A DNA stretch of 24,000 nt from Thermacetogenium phaeum DSM 12270 (GCF_000305935.1 NC_018870.1:55942-79941); one strand, 5' to 3'. Shown: positions 494-22,246, numbered from the stretch's first letter. Translations and numbers: made by a program. Notes: generated by a model not told the origin, from the letters alone.

Positions 494-3214
494 GTGGATG
501 GCAGGAAGAGGCTTGTCCGGCTGCTGTTTGTGGTGCTGGCGCTGGTTCTAGGCGACAGGGCTCTTAATGTCTGGGCGGATTACGAGTGGTTCAAGTCCCT
601 TGGTTACCAGGGAGTTTTCTGGACGCTGTTCTCGACGCGCTTTGTGGTGGGTGCCGCCGTTTTCCTGGTCCTCTTCGCCTTCTTCCAGCTCAACTTCAGA
701 TGCCTCCGGCGCTGCCTGCCGCCGCACCGGGTTTACGACCTCCACGGTGGCCGGATTTTGGCGGCGATGGTGAACCCCCTGCACCGCCTTATTACCTCCG
801 ATGCCGGCAAATATCTCTTTACCGTCTTGAGCGTCGCCTTATCCCTTATCTACGCCGTGAGCCTCGGCGCCCGCTTTGAGGTGATTCAGAAATTCGTCTA
901 TGCGGTGCCCTTCGGGCGAACCGACCCCATTTTCGGCCGAGACGCTGCCTTTTATGTCTTCAAACTGCCCTTTTACGAACTCCTTCAGTCGTCCCTGGCC
1001 TCGGCTTTTATTGTGGCGCTTTTTCTCTGCGCTTTTGTTTACCTTCTGCTGGCTTCGGGCGAATTTCTGCACGGGGGATGGCGTTTCTTTTCCCCGGTCA
1101 AGCTGCACCTAGGCTCTCTCATCGCCGGCCTCCTGGTTTTGAAGGCCTGGGACTACCACCTGTCCGTCTACCGTCTCCTCGTCGGCGGGAGCGGTGCCTT
1201 CCCCGGCGCCGGTTACACCGATATTCATGCCCGCCTCCCGGCATATCAGATTCTGGCGGTGCTGGCCGTGTTGGTCGCCGTTCTGGTCTTCGTCGGCATC
1301 TTTAAGGGGAGGGTTCTCCCGGTTGCCGCCGGAGCGGCCGTGCTGGCGGCGGCCTCCCTTCTTCTGGGTGCGGTTTATCCCGCCTTTGTGCAGAAATTTC
1401 AGGTGGAGCCCAATGAGTTCGCCCGGGAGGAGCCCTACATCGAGTACGGCCTTGACGCCACCCGCTTCGCCTTCGGGTTGGATGACGTCAGAAGCGTCAG
1501 TACGGCGGCGGCGGATGCCGGAGCAGGTGGGTTGGATGGGGAGACGCTGGAGAAGAGCGCAGGCCTCCTCCGCAATCTGCGCCTCTGGGACTTCCGCCCC
1601 CTGCAGCAGGTTTACAATCAGCTGCAGCAGCTGCGCCGCTACTACGTTTTTGCCGACGTGGACGTCGACCGCTACCGCCTGGGGGATCAATACCGCCAGG
1701 TGATGCTGGCGGTGCGGGAGCTGAACCAGGAGAATCTCCCCGAGCGCGCCGGAACCTGGGTGAACCGCCGGCTCCAGTACACCCACGGCTACGGGGTGGT
1801 GATGAGTCCGGCCAACGAGGTCACCGACGCCGGCCTTCCGGTGATGCTGCTTAAGAACATCCCACCTGCTGCCTCCTCACCGGAAATCGAGGTGAAGCGC
1901 CCGGAGATCTACTTCGGGGAGCTGACCGGCAACATGGTAGTGGTCAATACCAGGGCGGGGGAATTCAGCCACCCCTCCGGGGAAAGGAATGTTTACACCA
2001 ACTACGAGGGGCAGGGTGGTGTCAGGCTCACCCCTATCAAGCGCCTGCTCTACGCCCTGCACTTCCGCGACTTGCGCCTGCTCCTAAGCTCCGAGATCAC
2101 TCCCCAGAGCCGCATTCTCTACAACCGCACCGTTCAGGATGCCAGGCGCCTCGCCCCCTATCTCCGGTATGACGGGGACCCTTATCCGGTGGTGGACGGG
2201 GGGCGTATCTACTGGATCCTGGATGCCTATACGGTTGCCGGTCACTACCCCTACTCCGCTGCCAGAAATGGGATCAACTACGTCCGCAACTCGGTGAAGG
2301 TGGTTGTAGATGCCTACGAAGGGGATATTTCCTTTTACACCAGCGACCCCTCCGACCCGGTGGTCGGAACCTACAGCAGGATCTACCCCGGCCTTTACCG
2401 GCCTCTGTCGGAGATGCCTGCCGGCCTGCGAGCGCACCTGCGCTATCCTGAGGACCTTTTTAAGATGCAGGCGGACGTCTTTGCCGAATACCACGTCCGG
2501 GATGCCCGGGTTTTCTACAACAGGGAGGATGAGTGGGAGGTCCCTAAAGAGAAGTACTCCGATGCCAGCCGGCAGATGGAGCCCTACTATGTGATCATGC
2601 AGCTCCCCGGGGAAGAGGAGGAGGAGTTCCTGCTGATCCTCCCCTTTACTCCGATGAAGAGGGGGAATGCCGTGGCCTGGCTGGCGGCCCGCTGCGACGG
2701 GGAGCACTACGGTGAGCTCGTTCTGGACGTCTTTCCCAAAGATGTGCACGCCTACGGACCCATGCAGGTAGAGGCCAGCATCGACCAGGACGCCGACATC
2801 TCCGCCCAGCTTACCCTCTGGAACCAGCACGGTTCCCAGGTGATCCGGGGAAATCTGCTTACCGTCCCCCTGGCCGGCAAGCTCCTCTACGTCAAGCCCC
2901 TCTTTCTCCAGGCCGAGGAGAGCGCCATGCCGGAGCTGATCCGGGTGATCGCTTTCTACGACGGGAGGGTGGTTATGGAAAAGGATCTGCAGGGAGCGCT
3001 GGACAGGCTCTTCGGCCGGGCCGAACAGCCCCCGGAGCAGGGAGCCGCAACGCCGCAGGCTCCGGGAGATTCCTCCGCTCTTGCCCGGAGGGCCTGGCAG
3101 CTCTATCAGGAGGCCGGCGAGCGCCTCCGCGCCGGAGACTGGTCGGGTTACGGCAAGGCCATCGAGGAGTTAGGCCAGGTGCTGAAGGAGATGGCTGGGG
3201 AAACCGGCCGGTAG
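494..3214 (+). CDS. UPF0182 family large integral membrane protein (function unknown)
   Basis: 926-aa ORF (434-3214). It has multiple N-terminal TM helices, then a large soluble region with blocks I recall from UPF0182/COG1615 (LRLWDFRPL..YNQLQQLRRYY, QYTHGYG, PYY). I prefer GTG 494 as start because GGGAGGG (481-487) lies 6 nt upstream; TTG 434 is the alternative. Confidence 0.75.
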   Translation: MDGRKRLVRLLFVVLALVLGDRALNVWADYEWFKSLGYQGVFWTLFSTRFVVGAAVFLVLFAFFQLNFRCLRRCLPPHRVYDLHGGRILAAMVNPLHRLITSDAGKYLFTVLSVALSLIYAVSLGARFEVIQKFVYAVPFGRTDPIFGRDAAFYVFKLPFYELLQSSLASAFIVALFLCAFVYLLLASGEFLHGGWRFFSPVKLHLGSLIAGLLVLKAWDYHLSVYRLLVGGSGAFPGAGYTDIHARLPAYQILAVLAVLVAVLVFVGIFKGRVLPVAAGAAVLAAASLLLGAVYPAFVQKFQVEPNEFAREEPYIEYGLDATRFAFGLDDVRSVSTAAADAGAGGLDGETLEKSAGLLRNLRLWDFRPLQQVYNQLQQLRRYYVFADVDVDRYRLGDQYRQVMLAVRELNQENLPERAGTWVNRRLQYTHGYGVVMSPANEVTDAGLPVMLLKNIPPAASSPEIEVKRPEIYFGELTGNMVVVNTRAGEFSHPSGERNVYTNYEGQGGVRLTPIKRLLYALHFRDLRLLLSSEITPQSRILYNRTVQDARRLAPYLRYDGDPYPVVDGGRIYWILDAYTVAGHYPYSAARNGINYVRNSVKVVVDAYEGDISFYTSDPSDPVVGTYSRIYPGLYRPLSEMPAGLRAHLRYPEDLFKMQADVFAEYHVRDARVFYNREDEWEVPKEKYSDASRQMEPYYVIMQLPGEEEEEFLLILPFTPMKRGNAVAWLAARCDGEHYGELVLDVFPKDVHAYGPMQVEASIDQDADISAQLTLWNQHGSQVIRGNLLTVPLAGKLLYVKPLFLQAEESAMPELIRVIAFYDGRVVMEKDLQGALDRLFGRAEQPPEQGAATPQAPGDSSALARRAWQLYQEAGERLRAGDWSGYGKAIEELGQVLKEMAGETGR

Positions 3215-3255
3215 CCTGGGGTATTAATAATACCCGGCGGGATGAGGAATCATAA

Positions 3256-3483
3256 GTGGAAAAAGAGGGGTTGATCCATTTGGATAGCGGAAGGGCAAAG
3301 GAGATTGTGGAGTCGCTGGGGGTTGTTGAGGTGCTGTACAACGGTTTCCCCGTCTGGATCGAACGGCTGAACGGGGATACGGCAGAGGTGCGCTTTCTGG
3401 AAACCGGGGGGCGGCTGGAGGTGCCGGTGACGGAGCTGGTGGAAGGTGGGTCCCTCGGGGAAGAGGGGCCGGGCGGCCCATAA
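3256..3483 (+). CDS. sspH: H-type small acid-soluble spore protein
   Basis: ..GRAKEIVESLGVVEVLYNGFPVWIERLNGDTAEVRFLETGGRLEVPVTELVE resembles the SspH pattern (RAKEI..S....V.YNG.PV.I........A.V......E..VP...L.E). TTG 3280 may be the true start (AGAGGGG at 3264-3270, 9-nt spacing). Confidence 0.75.
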   Translation: MEKEGLIHLDSGRAKEIVESLGVVEVLYNGFPVWIERLNGDTAEVRFLETGGRLEVPVTELVEGGSLGEEGPGGP

Positions 3484-11204: not shown

Positions 11205-11344
11205 GGGTTGAAAGAAACCCCCGAGTTTGTCGGTTGACCCCCGAGTTTGGACGAATCTACCTGGACAAAGGCTACAGCTACATCTTCGCCTCCCGCCTGA
11301 AGAGAATAAAGAAAAGCGTCCAAAAAGGACGTCTTCTCACCTGA
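11205..11344 (+). pseudogene. Possible short remnant of a DDE (IS4/IS1634-like) transposase
   Basis: Frame reads ..PEFGRIYLDKGYSYIFASRLKRIKKSVQKGRLLT* (stop 11342-11344). The LDKGY and Y.YI...RLK strings resemble motifs I recall around the second Asp of IS4/IS1634 transposases. Very short, with no start codon; weak call. Confidence 0.3.
11218..11249. repeat. 12-nt direct repeat CCCCCGAGTTTG x2, separated by 8 nt
   Basis: 11218-11229 and 11238-11249 are identical. Confidence 0.9.
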
Positions 11345-11522
11345 TGGTTATCTGGGAAAAAGATATTGCGCCTGCTGCGCATGAAACAACCGAACAATGT
11401 GATTGCTGCTGATGACTTCCATGATCAGGTAATGTAGTGGCAAAATGCGCGCTTTTTAAAAAACTTTTTTAGGTTTCATACGGGTTTGAGCAGGGTCATC
11501 TGATAAACTCAGGATTGTCAAG

Positions 11523-11537
11523 ATATGATGGATTAAA
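11523..11537. repeat. Terminal inverted repeat (left copy)
   Basis: ATATGATGGATTAAA; contains the TAA stop (11533-11535, minus strand) of the 431-aa ORF. Confidence 0.95.
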
Positions 11538-12828
11538 TTTTCACCCCCTTGGAAGCTAGATATTCCTTGATCTCCTGATGATCCCGGTAGTGTTCCCGGA
11601 CAAGTTTCAGGTGCTCATTTATCAAGGAGATCCCCCTTTTCAAGAGGCGTGCCATAAGCTCAGGTGGAACACCGAACAAATACAAAATCAGGACTGCTTC
11701 GAAGGTTCCGATGTAGTTATCCACCGCCCGTGGTGAGTGATGAGTCATCCGGGCAATGTCTTTAACCGTGTAGCCCTGTAGATGCAGGCCGACGATCACA
11801 TCCTTGTGTGTCATGCTTCTCCCGGCATCAAGGATAGTCCCCGGGGTGGGCACTACCAGGTTATGTTCCCGCTGCACGCTGCGAATCAATTCCGAGATGC
11901 GGGCAGAACTTAACTGGAAGATCCACTGCAGCTCCATCAGAGTCAAGAGGCCGTTCTGGCGGTAGGCCTCGAAGCAGACCCGCACGATACGCCTCTTAAG
12001 TTGCTCCAGGAATCCCGGCACGGTGTCCGGCTGCTGCTCAAGCTCCTCGGGCTTCCAGACGGTGATAATCACCGGCGTCAACTGCCTGAAGCGGGTACTG
12101 ACGTCTTCCGAGAGGCGGGCGCTGACATGGGTCACGATGAGAGGCATCTCGTATGGCTTTAACTCCTTGGTTCGCGGGCAGCAGATGTGGCGCAGGGCGA
12201 TCACCTCTTCCACCAACTGGCGGGCCACCACCCGCCCGAGCCCGGCCTCCGCCGCCACGAATTCTGTCAGTTCCTTGAGCACCCGCCCTGGTGCCAGCAA
12301 ATCCGGCGCCTGCAGGCGGTCAGCAGGCAGGACTGGCTGAATTTGTTCAATCATGCAGTCCCAGGATGCCGCATCCGTCTTGCTGTAGGGCTGGATATCC
12401 TGGCACAGTTGATCAACATAGCTGGAGGGCCCTTTCTTACGCACCAGCGACCAGGGGTCGATGATGCGCACGAGGTCGCCCCGGCCGCCCTTGGGAAACC
12501 CCATGTGGTAACTTTGGAGGCAGCGCTCCAGGATCAGCTGCCTGGCCATGCCGAAGTCCCCGCCGCCGAGGATCGGATCCAGATACTCGGGGCAAAACAG
12601 AGGCAGGCGGGCCTGGCTCTGAGCCTTTTGCACGTACAGTTCGAAGGGCTTCACCCGCTCGATGCCCAGGACGGACTCCATCTCTTCCATGCGGCGGTTG
12701 ATCTCTTCTACCAGGAGCCGGGCGACCAGCGACTCCTTGCCGAAGTCGTACCTGCGGGCCAGGTACTGCACCTGGTAGTTGACGAGAGTTCTTTCCACCA
12801 GCGGCCGGTAGAGTTCGCGGCGGTTCAT
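11533..12828 (-). CDS. Multi-HTH protein, DUF1670-like C-terminal module (paralog of the upstream 513-aa gene)
   Basis: 431 aa of normal composition. C-terminal ~130 aa (..AYRQNGLLTLMELQWIFQLSSARISELIR......VPTPGTILDAGRSMTHKDVIVGLHLQGYTVKDIARMTHHSPRAVDNYIGTFEAVLILY..GVPPELMARLLKRGISLINEHLKLVREH) align with the C-terminus of the 513-aa protein. They match my memory of the Pfam DUF1670 pattern (L...DLA.LL..S..T.S......E.....LPTRG...D.G...THK..I..LY..G.....IA....HS....RYI..F..V). ATG overlaps the upstream stop (ATGA). Confidence 0.7.
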   Translation of the reverse strand: MNRRELYRPLVERTLVNYQVQYLARRYDFGKESLVARLLVEEINRRMEEMESVLGIERVKPFELYVQKAQSQARLPLFCPEYLDPILGGGDFGMARQLILERCLQSYHMGFPKGGRGDLVRIIDPWSLVRKKGPSSYVDQLCQDIQPYSKTDAASWDCMIEQIQPVLPADRLQAPDLLAPGRVLKELTEFVAAEAGLGRVVARQLVEEVIALRHICCPRTKELKPYEMPLIVTHVSARLSEDVSTRFRQLTPVIITVWKPEELEQQPDTVPGFLEQLKRRIVRVCFEAYRQNGLLTLMELQWIFQLSSARISELIRSVQREHNLVVPTPGTILDAGRSMTHKDVIVGLHLQGYTVKDIARMTHHSPRAVDNYIGTFEAVLILYLFGVPPELMARLLKRGISLINEHLKLVREHYRDHQEIKEYLASKGVKI

Positions 12829-14366
12829 CGCTTGACACCCCGCAGGCTTTTTTTTAGCTCGTCCTCGTGCAGTTCAAAAACTTTACGCAGGTGGTGTAGC
12901 CGGAAAGCGTATTCGGGGCCGGAGTATTCCTGAATCAACTCCAGATAAGTATTAATCAACTTAACTGATCGCCCGGTCACCCGCCGGATTAAGGGGACGG
13001 TCAGGCCGCGTTCGGACAGCACCAGCACTGCGGCGAATTCCTTGAGATAGTTCTCTATGGCCTCGTAGGAGTGCCCCGTGCGGGCGACGATCTCGGTCTC
13101 GGTATGCATCTCCAGATAGAGCTTGATGATCTTTTTGCGGTGAGTGACCCCGCGTCCGATATCGCACTCCATCCCCCTTAAGGGCACCGCCACGGCGGGG
13201 TGGGACCGCACCAGGCGGGAGATCGCCTCGGGGTGGATACCCAGCAGGTAGCCCAGGTCGGCATAGGTCAGGTAGCCCCCGGCGTATTTGGCCTGAGTGG
13301 CATAGCGCAGAACTTTCCGGAACTTGATATCGCTAAGGCGGTTTAAGTCCCGGTCCACATCCGGCGGCGGCACATCCTCCGGGTCTATTAGGGTAAGGCT
13401 CACCGGTACCAGACGGCAGGCCTCCAGGGGCTTGCCGGCCGGCTCGGTGCTGGCTACCGCCCAGTACACCACGTCCCCGTCAGGCCGGCTGTCGGAGAGG
13501 GCAGTCAGCATCTCCTCCGCTATTTCTCTCAAAGCCCTGGCCTTGACGGGTGACAGAGCAAAGTCCACCATGAGTTCATTCATGAAAGATGCCCAATCCC
13601 CGAAGGAAGGGGGTACGCCCGGCTCTTCCAAAAGGGGAAGCAGGGTCTTCTCCGGGACTACATGTACGATGGCCGCCCAGGCCTCCTCCTCGGGATCGCC
13701 CTGCTTAAACCTACCCTTTAGGATCGAGCGGGCAACGTGGGAAAAGCGGGACCACAGCTGCCGGAACGCTTCCCGGGATAGAGCAGCCGTTCGTCTGACT
13801 TCCGACAGGGACTCTCCATCCAGGTATCTGGCCAGCGCCCAGGCAGAGCGCAACATGCCACCACGCTCCCGGTCGACCCTGGGGAGACCGGCTACCGGTA
13901 CCCACATTCCTTCCCGGCGCAGTCCCGCCAGGCGGCTCCTGAGGGAGGTGGGCGTGATGTTACAGAGCACGGTCAGCTGTTTGGCGCTCAAGAGGGCATC
14001 CTGGCGGTAGGCCTCCTCGATCAAGCGGAGGATGCGGCCAGCCTGCATGGTGGACAGCCCGAACTCCAGCTCCAGGTCTAAATCTTCAATGTCGTAGGGG
14101 GTGAGCCTGATCTTTTTCAGTGCTTTATGCTTTCGAGAAAAGGCATCCCGTCCGGACACGGCGTCAGACAGGATCTGATTCGGGCCCCGTATCCCCGGCT
14201 GATTGGAAATCCACCTGGAGGTCCGGTACCCCAGCAACCGGGCCTCGGTCTCGCTCATGCCGAGTTCCTCGATAAAACGAACGGCGAGCAGGCTCTCCAG
14301 AGTCTTCTTGCGGGCTGATGCCACCTGGTATTTCAGGCGTTGACGGTATTCCTTGGCTCTTCCCAC
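12825..14366 (-). CDS. Multi-HTH protein with two DUF1670-like modules
   Basis: 513 aa. GTG start with AAGGAGG 7 nt upstream. N-terminal module (EEAYRQDALLSAKQLTVLCNITPTSLRSRLAGLRREGMWVPVAG). C-terminal module (..YAGGYLTYADLGYLLGIHPEAISRLVR.....VPLRGMECDIGRGVTHRKKIIKLYLEMHTETEIVARTGHSYEAIENYLKEFAAVLVLSERGLTVPLIRRVTGRSVKLINTYLELIQEY). Confidence 0.7.
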   Translation of the reverse strand: MGRAKEYRQRLKYQVASARKKTLESLLAVRFIEELGMSETEARLLGYRTSRWISNQPGIRGPNQILSDAVSGRDAFSRKHKALKKIRLTPYDIEDLDLELEFGLSTMQAGRILRLIEEAYRQDALLSAKQLTVLCNITPTSLRSRLAGLRREGMWVPVAGLPRVDRERGGMLRSAWALARYLDGESLSEVRRTAALSREAFRQLWSRFSHVARSILKGRFKQGDPEEEAWAAIVHVVPEKTLLPLLEEPGVPPSFGDWASFMNELMVDFALSPVKARALREIAEEMLTALSDSRPDGDVVYWAVASTEPAGKPLEACRLVPVSLTLIDPEDVPPPDVDRDLNRLSDIKFRKVLRYATQAKYAGGYLTYADLGYLLGIHPEAISRLVRSHPAVAVPLRGMECDIGRGVTHRKKIIKLYLEMHTETEIVARTGHSYEAIENYLKEFAAVLVLSERGLTVPLIRRVTGRSVKLINTYLELIQEYSGPEYAFRLHHLRKVFELHEDELKKSLRGVKR

Positions 14367-14378
14367 CAGTTTGCCTCC

Positions 14379-14651
14379 TTAACCCTTTCTGAACCCCGGC
14401 CGCAGTCTAAACCTGCGGCAGGATCCCATACCTGGGAGTATTGGAGGATTCTTGATCTCATCTATTACTTCCTGCATCCGTTTCAGTTTCTGCATGTCCC
14501 GGAGGATATCTTGGATCTGCCTATAACGGTCTTCATCATAGCGTCCGAGTGATGAAATTACTCGTTGTCTGGGATACCCTCCGCTAACATAGTAGTTGTG
14601 AGCTATCTGCATGTAACGGAGATCTCTGACTCTTACAATGCGTATGAACAT
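14379..14651 (-). CDS. Small ORF resembling the N-terminus of IS1634-family transposases (stand-alone or truncated)
   Basis: MFIRIVRVRDLRYMQIAHNYYVSGGYPRQRVISSLGRYDE.. follows the N-terminal pattern I recall for IS1634 transposases (MFIR.V....G..Y.QIVESYR..GK..Q.V...LG....). The last ~20 aa are Arg/Gly-rich and look out of frame. Its stop overlaps the RBS of the 513-aa gene. Confidence 0.45.
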   Translation of the reverse strand: MFIRIVRVRDLRYMQIAHNYYVSGGYPRQRVISSLGRYDEDRYRQIQDILRDMQKLKRMQEVIDEIKNPPILPGMGSCRRFRLRPGFRKG

Positions 14652-14657
14652 GGATCT

Positions 14658-14672
14658 TTTAATCCATCATAT
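14658..14672. repeat. Terminal inverted repeat (right copy)
   Basis: TTTAATCCATCATAT; on the minus strand it encodes the last codons and stop of hicB (..Y M M D *). Confidence 0.95.
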
Positions 14673-15102
14673 ATCGGTTGAAGAAGTGTTTGTCAACAAA
14701 GCCAAGTTGTTCCTTTAAAGCGTACTGAAGGACTTGAGAGAAGTTTATTCCTTCTTTTTCGGCTGCGTCATTGAGCCACTTGGGTATAGTTAATGTTTTC
14801 TTGATCGCCCGATTTTGTGTCTCGTCACGAATAGGTTCTGTACGAGCCTGGATTAGGGTTACGAAGGCGCCAGGGCTTGCATCTTCCGGTAATTTTACTT
14901 CCACAGGGTTGGAAGGAACCGGAATTTCATCGCCGTCCTCCTCCATGCCATACAAGTGGAGAGCCATGGCTTCGGCAGCCATCTTTAATGCTTCGTCCAG
15001 AGTATCGCCTTCCGTTACACAACCGGGAAGGTCGGGAAACGTAACAGTGTACCCGCCATGTTCGTTGGGATCAAAAATCGCAGGATAAACGTATTTAGGC
15101 AT
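14659..15102 (-). CDS. hicB: HicB-family antitoxin (HicB fold + C-terminal RHH-like DNA-binding region)
   Basis: MPKYVYPAIFDPNEHGGYTVTFPDLPGCVTEGDTLDEALKMAAEAMALHL is a typical HicB N-domain. C-terminal ..KKTLTIPKWLNDAAEKEGINFSQVLQYALKEQL is ribbon-helix-helix-like. AAGGAGG RBS. Directly downstream of hicA. Confidence 0.9.
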   Translation of the reverse strand: MPKYVYPAIFDPNEHGGYTVTFPDLPGCVTEGDTLDEALKMAAEAMALHLYGMEEDGDEIPVPSNPVEVKLPEDASPGAFVTLIQARTEPIRDETQNRAIKKTLTIPKWLNDAAEKEGINFSQVLQYALKEQLGFVDKHFFNRYMMD

Positions 15103-15129
15103 CTATGCAAACCTCCTTTCTGCCGGGGC

Positions 15130-15315
15130 TTACTTAAGGAGCCCGGCCTGCTTAAGTATTGACTTGAATGTTTTTGGTGCTAGAGATTTTCTTGGGTGAG
15201 GGACGGTTACTTTGCCAGGTTTTGTTGGGTGTTTGAACTGATGATGACTTCCCGCGACCCCCACCAAGTACCAACCGTCCTCTTCAAGCAATTTGATTAT
15301 TTCGCGGGAAGACAA
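15130..15315 (-). CDS. hicA: HicA-family mRNA interferase toxin
   Basis: (M)SSREIIKLLEEDGWYLVGVAGSHHQFKHPTKPGKVTVPHPRKSLAPKTFKSILKQAGL is canonical HicA/YcfA. TTG start with no well-placed SD (see findings). Confidence 0.85.
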   Translation of the reverse strand: MSSREIIKLLEEDGWYLVGVAGSHHQFKHPTKPGKVTVPHPRKSLAPKTFKSILKQAGLLK

Positions 15316-21391: not shown

Positions 21392-21820
21392 TTGGACATC
21401 CAATCGCTATGCCAAAAATTATCGCCGGTTTTTGAATCTTACGGGGTTTCGTGCTGCTATCTTTTTGGTTCGCGCGCCGGGGAAAATTATTATCATGATA
21501 GCGACATCGACCTGGCAGTAGTATTTGATAACTATTCCCCCGAAAAACATAACCTGAATCTGGAAATAGAAATCCAGGATACGGTATCAGAAATTTTAGC
21601 GCCGCTGGAAGTGGATCTTCTGTTTTTACAAAAGGCTCCCATCTACCTGAGGTTTACCGTTATTAAAAACGGCAAAGTCATTTATTGTTCGAATGAAGAT
21701 TTCCGTACCGATTTTGAGGATATAACGATAAGAGATTACCTGGACTTTAAACCCGTTCTGGACATGTATTACCGGGAAATGGCAGAGGAGTTAATAGAAA
21801 AAAACGGCGGGAGGATTTGA
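21392..21820 (+). CDS. mntA: Nucleotidyltransferase-domain protein (MntA-type antitoxin)
   Basis: CYLFGSRAGENYYHDSDIDLAVVF = minimal NTase GS...DxD motif. TTG start after AGGGGGTGG. Immediately followed by a HEPN gene. Confidence 0.85.
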   Translation: MDIQSLCQKLSPVFESYGVSCCYLFGSRAGENYYHDSDIDLAVVFDNYSPEKHNLNLEIEIQDTVSEILAPLEVDLLFLQKAPIYLRFTVIKNGKVIYCSNEDFRTDFEDITIRDYLDFKPVLDMYYREMAEELIEKNGGRI

Positions 21821-21823
21821 AGC

Positions 21824-22246
21824 TTGATTAATAAAGACTTGATTCGCAACCGCATCGACCTTATCAACCGCTCGATAGCCAGGCTGAAAAGAATGGCGGC
21901 TCTGTCCAGGGAGCAATTTTTGGCTGATCCCGATAACTTTGCCATTGCGGAACATCACCTGCGCCGGGCACTGCAAAGCCTGTTTGATGCCGGCAGACAC
22001 ATCATCGCCAAGCAGGGACTGGGGCATCCGGTTGATTACCGGTCGATCATTTTGACCCTGGGCAGGGAAAAAATTATCCCCCCGCAATTCGCGGAAAGGA
22101 TCAAAGGCATGGCCGGATATCGCAACCGCCTGGTGCACGGTTATGCGGAAGTAACGCCGGAAGAGATGTATAACGTCATTCAAGAGAGACTCGATGATTT
22201 TGAAGAGTTCTGTTTCCACATTTTAAAATACACAGCCAACACCTAG
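21824..22246 (+). CDS. hepT: HEPN/DUF86 protein (HepT-type toxin)
   Basis: R-x4-H motif in GYRNRLVHGY, helical DUF86 layout. TTG start 3 nt after the mntA stop, with GGGAGGA 8 nt upstream. Confidence 0.85.
   Translation: MINKDLIRNRIDLINRSIARLKRMAALSREQFLADPDNFAIAEHHLRRALQSLFDAGRHIIAKQGLGHPVDYRSIILTLGREKIIPPQFAERIKGMAGYRNRLVHGYAEVTPEEMYNVIQERLDDFEEFCFHILKYTANT

Follow-up and report, generated by a model that had tools for sequence, protein, structure and literature searches.

At positions 11,523 to 14,672 of a 24,000-nucleotide stretch of the Thermacetogenium phaeum DSM 12270 genome (the window, by which we mean the whole stretch), a compact operon of three genes, Tph_c00730-00750, is enclosed by perfect inverted repeats and encodes nothing that resembles a recombinase. 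Is such an arrangement a mobile element, an invertible switch, or an ordinary regulatory operon framed by a fortuitous repeat; and if it moves, what moves it? A reading made from the sequence alone had proposed an insertion sequence (IS)-like or invertible element. Comparison with relatives indicates that the unit, whose three open reading frames (ORFs) we call ORF1, ORF2 and ORF3, is an IS-like mobile element of an undescribed family. The same comparison shows that one of its ends, the A-end, which lies downstream of ORF3, docks in one orientation at the right-end boundaries of IS1634-family elements or at look-alikes of these boundaries. As to what the unit is in functional terms, we give an even chance to a compact (~3.2 kb) IS-like element that is specialised on IS1634-family ends and is probably helped by the IS1634 transposase.

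Limits and mobility of the unit

Relatives were gathered from searches with the proteins, from look-ups of exact proteins and from two scans for DNA patterns. The features of the window copy are as follows, in window coordinates.

11220..11513, no strand assigned: IS1634-family internal-deletion relic, 294 bp, adjoining the unit; partner or target, outside the unit
11514..14686, genes on the minus strand: whole mobile unit, 3173 bp, its limits set where relatives cease to be alike
11514..11522, minus strand: A-end outer terminus, CTTGACAAT on the gene strand, downstream of ORF3 and conserved across lineages
11523..11537, no strand assigned: subterminal inverted repeat, copy at the ORF3 stop codon, an exact repeat match
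11533..12828, minus strand: ORF3, 431 amino acids, sharing an ATGA overlap with ORF2, its TAA inside the repeat
12825..14366, minus strand: ORF2, 513 amino acids, with a GTG start 12 nt past the ORF1 stop
14379..14651, minus strand: ORF1, 90 amino acids, its ATG 6 nt inside the repeat
14658..14672, no strand assigned: subterminal inverted repeat, copy beside ORF1, holding the -10-like hexamer TATGAT
14673..14686, minus strand: B-end outer terminus, CTTCTTCAACCGAT on the gene strand, upstream of ORF1 and kept in all three-gene relatives
14659..15102, minus strand: hicB antitoxin gene (Pfam HicB_lk_antitox, E 1e-18, residues 6-125)

The sequence-only reading had described exact 15-bp inverted repeats that bracket three coupled minus-strand genes, and all of these features were found as described: ATATGATGGATTAAA lies at 11523-11537 on the plus strand, and its exact reverse complement at 14658-14672. 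No other match to the 15-mer occurs within the window, even with 2 mismatches, and shuffled sequences lead to an expectation of 0. The boundaries drawn at these repeats, and the 12-bp terminal inverted repeats suggested with them, have to be revised. The conserved element extends 9 bp past the low-side repeat (11514-11522, attgtcaag) and 14 bp past the high-side repeat (14673-14686, atcggttgaagaag), and because relatives share this additional sequence, the unit corresponds to 11514-14686 (3173 bp). On the gene strand, three-gene relatives begin with CTTCTTC(A/T)ACCG-NN-ATATGATGG and end with CCATCATAT-CTTGACAAT. Beyond the tip on the ORF1 side, different loci have unrelated DNA. The tips are asymmetric, with CTTCTTCAACCG at the B-end and CTTGACAAT (reverse complement ATTGTCAAG) at the A-end, and the repeats are subterminal, lying 14 bp inside the tip on the B side and 9 bp inside it on the A side. 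Between them the three genes are tightly packed, leaving non-coding stretches of 21 nt, 12 nt and 0 nt.

Throughout the family the two copies of the repeat co-vary (ATATGATGGATTAAA, ATATGATGGTTTAAA, TATATAATGGTTTAAA, TATATGGGGGTATGGAA, ATATGGTAT(A/T)TT); in locus L015, for instance, TATATGGGGGTATGGAA is present at both ends. Since the copies change together from lineage to lineage, both are under selection to match. On this comparative ground we consider the 15-bp repeat to be functional and not a product of chance.

The suspicion of an IS-like mobile unit was borne out by identical copies at many sites in relatives, and by a truncated second copy in T. phaeum itself. A Limnochordia homologue measures exactly 3189 bp and is identical at 3189/3189 positions behind at least 8 different left flanks. 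Of the 693 sample blocks in which its exact ORF2 protein is recorded, 584 have it on contigs of 2-5 kb, the signature of an assembly-breaking repeat. In a lineage 65% identical, the P0016 group, the unit is identical at no fewer than 3 left flanks (ending in GTAAG, ACCGT and GAAAA) and at 5 right flanks. The second T. phaeum copy of the window's unit (L169:7996-8630) lies about 60 kb away and consists of the last 635 bp, 98% identical. Its A-end adjoins another IS1634-like repeat (CCAGTGTTCGACATCC), in a nest of IS fragments that includes a 231-residue DUF4277 transposase fragment on the opposite strand.

These copies bear directly on the simplest explanation, an ordinary chromosomal regulator operon with a chance repeat. 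Its proteins are rich in helix-turn-helix (HTH) motifs, as such an operon would have them, and chance inverted 15-mers are not rare: the sequence-only reading expected 0.27 of them per window, and the arithmetic is right. Identical copies at many unrelated sites already refute this explanation, however, and units disrupt genes, namely the tail of hicB in the window, a serine-recombinase (resolvase) gene in Syntrophothermus lipocalidus and the aro operon at locus L060. The ends are moreover conserved beyond the repeat, whose copies co-vary, and we regard a regulator operon as hardly credible.

A second possibility, also raised by the sequence-only reading, is that the segment between the 15-bp repeats flips, toggling the operon or its neighbours. 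The exact repeats bracket the operon closely enough for such a switch, and inversion did occur in evolution, as the cassette is opposite relative to the tips in a two-gene subfamily that lacks ORF1 and in a Petrotoga copy. Yet a single orientation is seen in 28/28 metagenomic right ends and in all close relatives, flips being confined to distant subfamilies; there is no invertase gene; and the unit is multi-copy and mobile, unlike a local switch. An active invertible segment is therefore very improbable, and the flipped cassettes are, as far as comparison tells, evolutionary events rather than polymorphisms. The Petrotoga copy (L069:150-4800, Petrotoga sp. 9PWA.NaAc.5.4) is a three-gene unit with an A-like tip and an abutting IS end upstream of ORF1, a B-like tip downstream of ORF3, and an IS3-family element between ORF1 and ORF2; it looks decayed.

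Relatives with 50-65% protein identity lie on contigs, mostly of ~3.2 kb, that are assigned to Bacillota, Actinomycetota, Spirochaetota, Planctomycetota and several proteobacterial groups, and in one case to a Thermoplasmata bin, the binning of such short contigs being unreliable. The family defined by ORF2 and ORF3, Pfam DUF1670 (PF07900), is small, with 974 clusters at E<=1e-3 in a profile search that covered 1.84 billion representatives. No copy of the unit was found by tblastn in phage and plasmid collections, and no gene matched the PADLOC or PHROG families of defence and phage genes. Two further loci illustrate the fate of individual copies. In S. lipocalidus (L056:5700-7400, CP002048), a deletion derivative carries ORF2 and ORF3 fused into one 454-residue protein, apparently through recombination between the paralogous DUF1670 domains; it sits in the serine-recombinase gene, with an IS256-family element next to it. 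In a Limnochordia genome (L047:12297-14312), the unit's ORF3 is interrupted by a different IS1634-type IS (DUF4277 + DDE_Tnp_1), and IS21 and other IS copies adjoin in a dense mobile-element nest.

Docking beside IS1634-family ends

In almost all relatives, the window copy included, the A-end adjoins at 0 bp the terminal inverted repeat of an IS1634-family IS. A scan of JGI metagenomes with the A-end motif returned 28 genuine units, and pooling all loci gave 36 distinct flanks. Following CTTGACAAT, 33/36 flanks start with C; 25/36 combine C at position 1 with TT at positions 7-8, at 0 bp from the A-end (0.56 expected), and 18/36 additionally have AC at positions 11-12 (0.035 expected). The flank consensus, C[CT]NNNNTT[CT]GACAGT, fits the published IS1634-family end, C-----YT (PMC2266710). 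A full-length IS1634 transposase gene is present in 17 of the 23 loci with at least 600 nt of flank and is always on the opposite strand, convergent with the unit, which is therefore always found at the repeat downstream of the transposase gene.

In Limnochordia copies the A-end is followed directly by a 1.94-kb IS that encodes a 557-residue transposase (NCBIfam IS1634, 362 bits against a cut-off of 100), and the convergent arrangement of unit and transposase gene recurs beside very different IS1634-family elements. The two-gene subfamily obeys the same junction rule through its homologous tip, a T. phaeum copy included. At that locus (L169:1371-6280), about 60 kb from the window's unit, an intact IS1634-family IS (1371-3277, 566-residue transposase) and the two-gene DUF1670 unit after it lie on one strand with 0 bp between them; the unit belongs to a distant subfamily, and its ORF2-like gene is split.

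In the window, the partner is the 294-bp relic. Its 21-nt inverted repeats (11220-11240 and 11493-11513) are 81% complementary, its first 81 nt share 83% identity with one end of the complete IS1634-family IS adjoining a unit in L167, and another 58 nt correspond to part of the transposase gene of that IS. No transposase coding capacity is left in the relic, which fits the definition of a miniature inverted-repeat transposable element (MITE) or non-autonomous IS1634 derivative. The sequence-only reading had rightly noticed "IS debris" nearby, while overlooking its role as the abutted IS1634 partner. At the far end of the relic, the motif CCGAGTTTG occurs twice, 21 nt apart (11241-11253 and 11220-11232; cccgagtttgtcgg... 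ccgagtttggacg), and may represent a duplicated end or a second binding site.

An IS may not always be required at the docking point. The solo copy at L060 adjoins CTGGGGATTGACAC, which belongs to the coding sequence of the native tyrA gene. This flank agrees with the partner IS repeat at 11/14 positions, which suggests that a look-alike sequence suffices.

Which of the two partners arrived first can be read from their divergence. Eight Limnochordia units are 100% identical, whereas the IS copies attached to them are 94.5-99.9% identical. The trees of ORF2/ORF3 and of the transposases are incongruent: the transposases of L049 and L006 are sisters (56% identity, against ~30% to others), yet at 50% their ORF2 proteins form one of the most divergent pairs. 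In view of the identical units beside diverged ISs and of the incongruent identities, inheritance of the two partners as a single block was rejected. Insertion of the IS beside a resident unit was likewise rejected: a 5-bp copy of the unit tip was sought beyond the far end of the IS, and the tip is never duplicated there. Taken together, these observations, drawn largely from metagenome contigs of which some are visibly chimeric at the repeat (L036, L038, L043), indicate that the unit entered beside a resident IS.

The direct repeats found around some composites can be placed in this scheme. IS1634 elements generate target duplications of 5-6 bp or of variable length (PMC2266710), and in two composites of "IS plus unit" direct repeats stand on either side, 11 bp long in L049, a long-read contig, and 5 bp long (TTGAA) in T. 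phaeum L169. These are best read as the IS's own duplication, and are what would be expected if the unit had slipped between the IS terminus and the IS duplication, adding nothing. For the unit itself, nothing longer than an ambiguous shared C or CT was found as a target duplication, so that the TA duplication suggested by the sequence-only reading can be set aside. The solo copy at L048 has the 5-bp GCCGT on both sides and is 2 nt short at the tip of its A-end; GCCGT is better explained there as the duplication of an IS that was later lost.

The same repeats could be taken to mean that the genes are passive cargo of a longer IS1634 transposon, running from the B-end to the far IS repeat and moved as a whole by the IS1634 transposase, with solo units as leftovers once the IS part had excised or decayed. 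The repeats around the composites at L049 and L169 are of IS1634 type, and L048, minus the end of its A-end, would look as after loss of the IS; the B-end is also weakly like IS1634 repeats (TTCAACCG against TTTGACAG), and the window copy adjoins a decayed IS. Such an origin is difficult to reconcile with units that are 100% identical while the attached ISs differ by up to 5%, with incongruent phylogenies, and with the copy at L060, which occupies a look-alike site in a housekeeping gene where there is no IS. Cargo would not need its own co-varying repeats and a conserved outward -35, and in the contig L023, discussed below, the unit ends are joined without an IS between them. We therefore rate the cargo explanation as quite unlikely.

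Probable head-to-tail form, gene products and candidate mechanisms

The A-end carries an outward-facing consensus -35 hexamer, TTGACA. When the A-end is joined to the B-end by computation, the predicted junction, CATATCTTGACAAT followed directly by CTTCTTC(A/T)ACCG, contains TTGACA-17 nt-TATGAT, ~15 nt upstream of the ORF1 start. This junction promoter has 11/12 consensus matches in 7 three-gene lineages (window included), and also in the two-gene lineages. In the two-gene lineages and the Petrotoga copy, the junction gives TTGACA-18-TATGAT/TATATT with TTGACA on the other tip; the -35 is always on the tip downstream of the last gene, even where the cassette is flipped. Conservation of this kind looks like selection for the promoter. 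In one contig (L023:1740-1860), ORF3, A-end, B-end and ORF1 follow each other head to tail without a spacer. This join, the sole junction seen, represents a circle junction or else a tandem copy, and an assembly artefact arising at the inverted repeats would not yield it. A circular or tandem form of the unit thus appears likely from the arrangement of its ends.

The gene products fall into two groups. ORF1, for which Pfam and NCBIfam gave no match, is a free-standing protein homologous to the N-terminus of IS1634-family transposases (first ~55 residues): it matches the neighbouring transposase by blastp (E 3e-7), with tblastn returning to the window at E 9e-5, and profile-profile comparison with the IS1634 transposase by hhalign aligns residues 1-52 with 1-56 (probability 96.9%, E 1.5e-10). 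ORF2 and ORF3 both belong to DUF1670 (E 1e-56 and 191.8 bits for ORF2, E 4e-35 and 121.8 bits for ORF3, against a gathering cut-off of 25), and both bear the NCBI name "DUF1670 domain-containing protein". They are paralogous (hhalign probability 99.7% across ~260 columns) and show no homology to the IS1634 transposase (hhalign probability <1%). The longest family members (930-952 residues) are natural ORF2-ORF3 fusions; short DUF1670 proteins of ~260 residues also exist.

The absence of a recognisable recombinase, a central point of the sequence-only reading, holds at the levels of sequence and predicted fold. No catalytic domain was found in ORF1-3 with Pfam and NCBIfam, DDE and invertase domains included, and none of the 974 DUF1670 clusters is fused to one; weak Pfam matches are all to HTH families typical of transposase DNA-binding regions. 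AlphaFold2 models, built from 61- and 70-sequence alignments, have a mean predicted local distance difference test (pLDDT) score of 87.5 with a predicted template modelling (pTM) score of 0.81 for ORF2, and 90.6 with 0.90 for ORF3. Both are almost wholly helical, made of serial (winged) HTH modules and two small beta-hairpins, and neither has an alpha/beta core such as is seen in RNase-H, RuvC, serine-recombinase or HUH folds. Foldseek searches of the two models against the PDB gave nothing at E<0.1, local matches being to the DNA-binding domains of MntR/DtxR, NarL/GerE, KorB and SelB, and sequence-profile searches against the PDB gave no match. A tyrosine-recombinase-like H...Y spacing in the last HTH was judged to be an ordinary recognition helix (Cre only at E 2, template modelling score 0.12). 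The two proteins share an invariant loop, P-x-x-G-x-x-x-D-x-G-R-x-x-T-H-(R/K), at residues 395-409 of ORF2 and 327-342 of ORF3, which has low model confidence, is read as flexible and directly precedes an HTH. The loop may serve as a minor-groove arm; a role in an active site is less likely.

How might such a set of proteins move DNA? In the explanation we favour, the unit would pass through a head-to-tail form, circular or tandem, whose abutted ends build the strong promoter TTGACA-N17-TATGAT before ORF1. The paralogous pair ORF2/ORF3 would bind the unit's own repeats, and the IS repeat would be recognised either by ORF1, putatively a copy of the IS1634 transposase N-terminal module, or by the neighbouring transposase. 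Breakage and joining would take place at the same phosphodiester where the IS1634 transposase cuts its own end, and the chemistry would be supplied by the neighbour's IS1634 DDE transposase, making the unit a satellite or hyperparasite beside its helper. Catalysis by the neighbouring DDE transposase is favoured, at close to an even chance, because the unit has no recognisable enzyme, is found next to the transposase gene three times out of four and encodes a portion of that transposase.

Several observations weigh against a helper of this kind. Likeness to IS1634 repeats is weak in the unit's repeats and tips alike, which makes their processing by an IS1634 transposase hard to picture. IS1634-type enzymes are not known to use circles, and they leave 5-6 bp duplications whereas the unit leaves none. 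Partner transposases are diverse (27-56% identity) while unit proteins are conserved (47-65%), which makes a specific protein-protein dependence awkward, and since the two-gene subfamily docks without ORF1, this protein is not essential for docking. Copies at L063, L070, L075 and L048 have no IS-like flank. When JGI metagenomes were scanned for the pattern expected of a circle junction, 0 matches came back, and there are no circular contigs among the loci collected. Finally, most related loci are short-read metagenome contigs, prone to chimeric joins at repeats, as exemplified by one flank that is paired with different partners in L036, L038 and L043; isolate or long-read cases are few (window, L169, L049, L056).

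The principal competitor to the helper explanation is an autonomous element, in which the DUF1670 pair itself excises a circle and integrates it without duplication, IS1634 boundaries being merely a safe landing site within another mobile element, much as the repeats of transposons are for IS1111-family elements. The unit is self-contained and its repeats co-vary with its own proteins; the junction promoter drives its own genes and was retained through the evolutionary cassette flip; a two-gene version suffices; and the unit ends are unlike IS1634 ends. The proteins are large, conserved across phyla and endowed with invariant D, H, R, Y and K residues in addition to the shared flexible loop. 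The behaviour is also like that of IS1111/IS110 elements, with subterminal repeats, no duplication, site specificity and, for the unit as a prediction, a promoter-forming circle (PMC11187229). On the other hand, confident models (pLDDT 88-91) describe HTH arrays with two hairpins, with no fold of the RNase-H, RuvC, serine, tyrosine or HUH type and no PDB match at E<0.1; 0/974 family clusters are fused to a catalytic domain; and both the ancestry of ORF1 and the near-constant presence of a neighbouring IS1634 transposase gene suggest a functional tie. Autonomy seems to us unlikely on balance, though it deserves serious weight. It is doubtful, in particular, that the pair forms a new HTH-array class of recombinase, protein-guided and duplication-free, unrelated to the DDE, DEDD, HUH, serine, tyrosine and Cas1 classes.

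The window copy itself lies among housekeeping genes, between rpsF-ssb-rpsR and a stretch with hicBA, gdpP, rplI, a lon-like gene and dnaB. Reading the junction from the sequence, the last 8 codons of hicB and its stop (FFNRYMMD and stop) are unit sequence, and the stop codon (14659-14661) falls within the subterminal repeat. The hicA/hicB toxin-antitoxin pair (14659-15315) immediately precedes the unit and shares its strand, and 15379-15350 holds a promoter-like site. No promoter comparable to that of the junction was found in the integrated window copy, and read-through from hicAB could be the sole transcription that reaches ORF1 there. Reconstruction of the empty hicB site failed. As there is no direct repeat around relic and unit, and the joined flanks give an implausible read-through, a later rearrangement at this locus is likely. 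With its partner IS reduced to the 294-bp relic, the window copy is probably stranded; intact IS1634-family elements are present ~60 kb away in the same genome. A second toxin-antitoxin-like pair (21392-22246) is found downstream of dnaB; it combines a nucleotidyltransferase (Polbeta/MNT) with a HepT-like RNase.

DUF1670 genes are carried as hypothetical proteins in annotation, and we found no mention of DUF1670 or PF07900 in the literature searched. The family now gains a context, as it marks a discrete mobile element that resides on IS1634 ends in many phyla, mostly of anaerobic bacteria. These units break metagenome assemblies (thousands of ~3.2 kb contigs) and disrupt genes, and can now be annotated by their end motifs. 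Should the unit indeed hijack the enzyme of another transposon, it would be a protein-coding parasite of a parasite, a situation hardly documented in prokaryotes. Should the HTH proteins instead be an unrecognised recombinase, their protein-programmed, duplication-free and site-specific insertion would be of interest to genome engineers. If the DUF1670 proteins prove catalytic, the system has a real chance of being categorically new.

Comparison with known systems

Mobile DNA that encodes no recombinase and relies on an enzyme encoded elsewhere has precedents. MITEs carry the repeats of their helper and no genes, and Xer-exploiting elements such as the CTX phage use a host enzyme at dif. The unit differs from both in having its own repeats and ~1030 codons of conserved proteins, and in targeting a transposon end; with three conserved genes of its own, it does not qualify as a MITE.

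The IS1634 family is linked to the unit in three ways: ORF1 is homologous to the transposase N-terminus, the unit lives beside these elements, and the direct repeats around composites fit the family. Nevertheless, the unit lacks DDE_Tnp_1, and DUF1670 is unrelated to the transposase; the tips (CTTCTTCAACCG and ATTGTCAAG) are not of the C-----YT type, the subterminal repeats are unrelated and there is no duplication. With the catalytic domain absent and the repeats different, the unit is not an IS1634 element.

Insertion adjoining inverted repeats with strict orientation specificity is known for IS30, which targets its own repeats (PMC9333248). As in this IR-targeting, and in the targeted insertion of IS911, the unit is inserted exactly beside the terminal repeat of a resident IS, would start from an abutted-end form and creates a new end-to-end junction. 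The difference is that IS30 acts on its own repeats with its own DDE transposase, whereas the unit is a different element from its target, with other repeats and no transposase.

The closest systems in behaviour are IS1111/IS110 elements such as ISEc11, IS4321/IS5075 and ISEc21. IS4321/IS5075 target Tn21-family repeats; the unit likewise inserts in one orientation at a specific sequence that often belongs to another mobile element. It also shares asymmetric ends with these elements, together with the subterminal repeats (IS1111 group) and the lack of a duplication. The abutted-end circle that creates a -35/-10 promoter, as described for them (PMC11187229), is predicted for the unit. Two differences set it apart. 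IS1111/IS110 elements encode a DEDD (RuvC-like) transposase, and the unit has no such domain or fold; and they use a guide (seek/bridge) RNA transcribed from a long non-coding region, while non-coding stretches in the unit do not exceed ~20 nt. Given that a guide RNA has no space in the unit, and no Rfam match was obtained for one, recognition of the target must be performed by protein.

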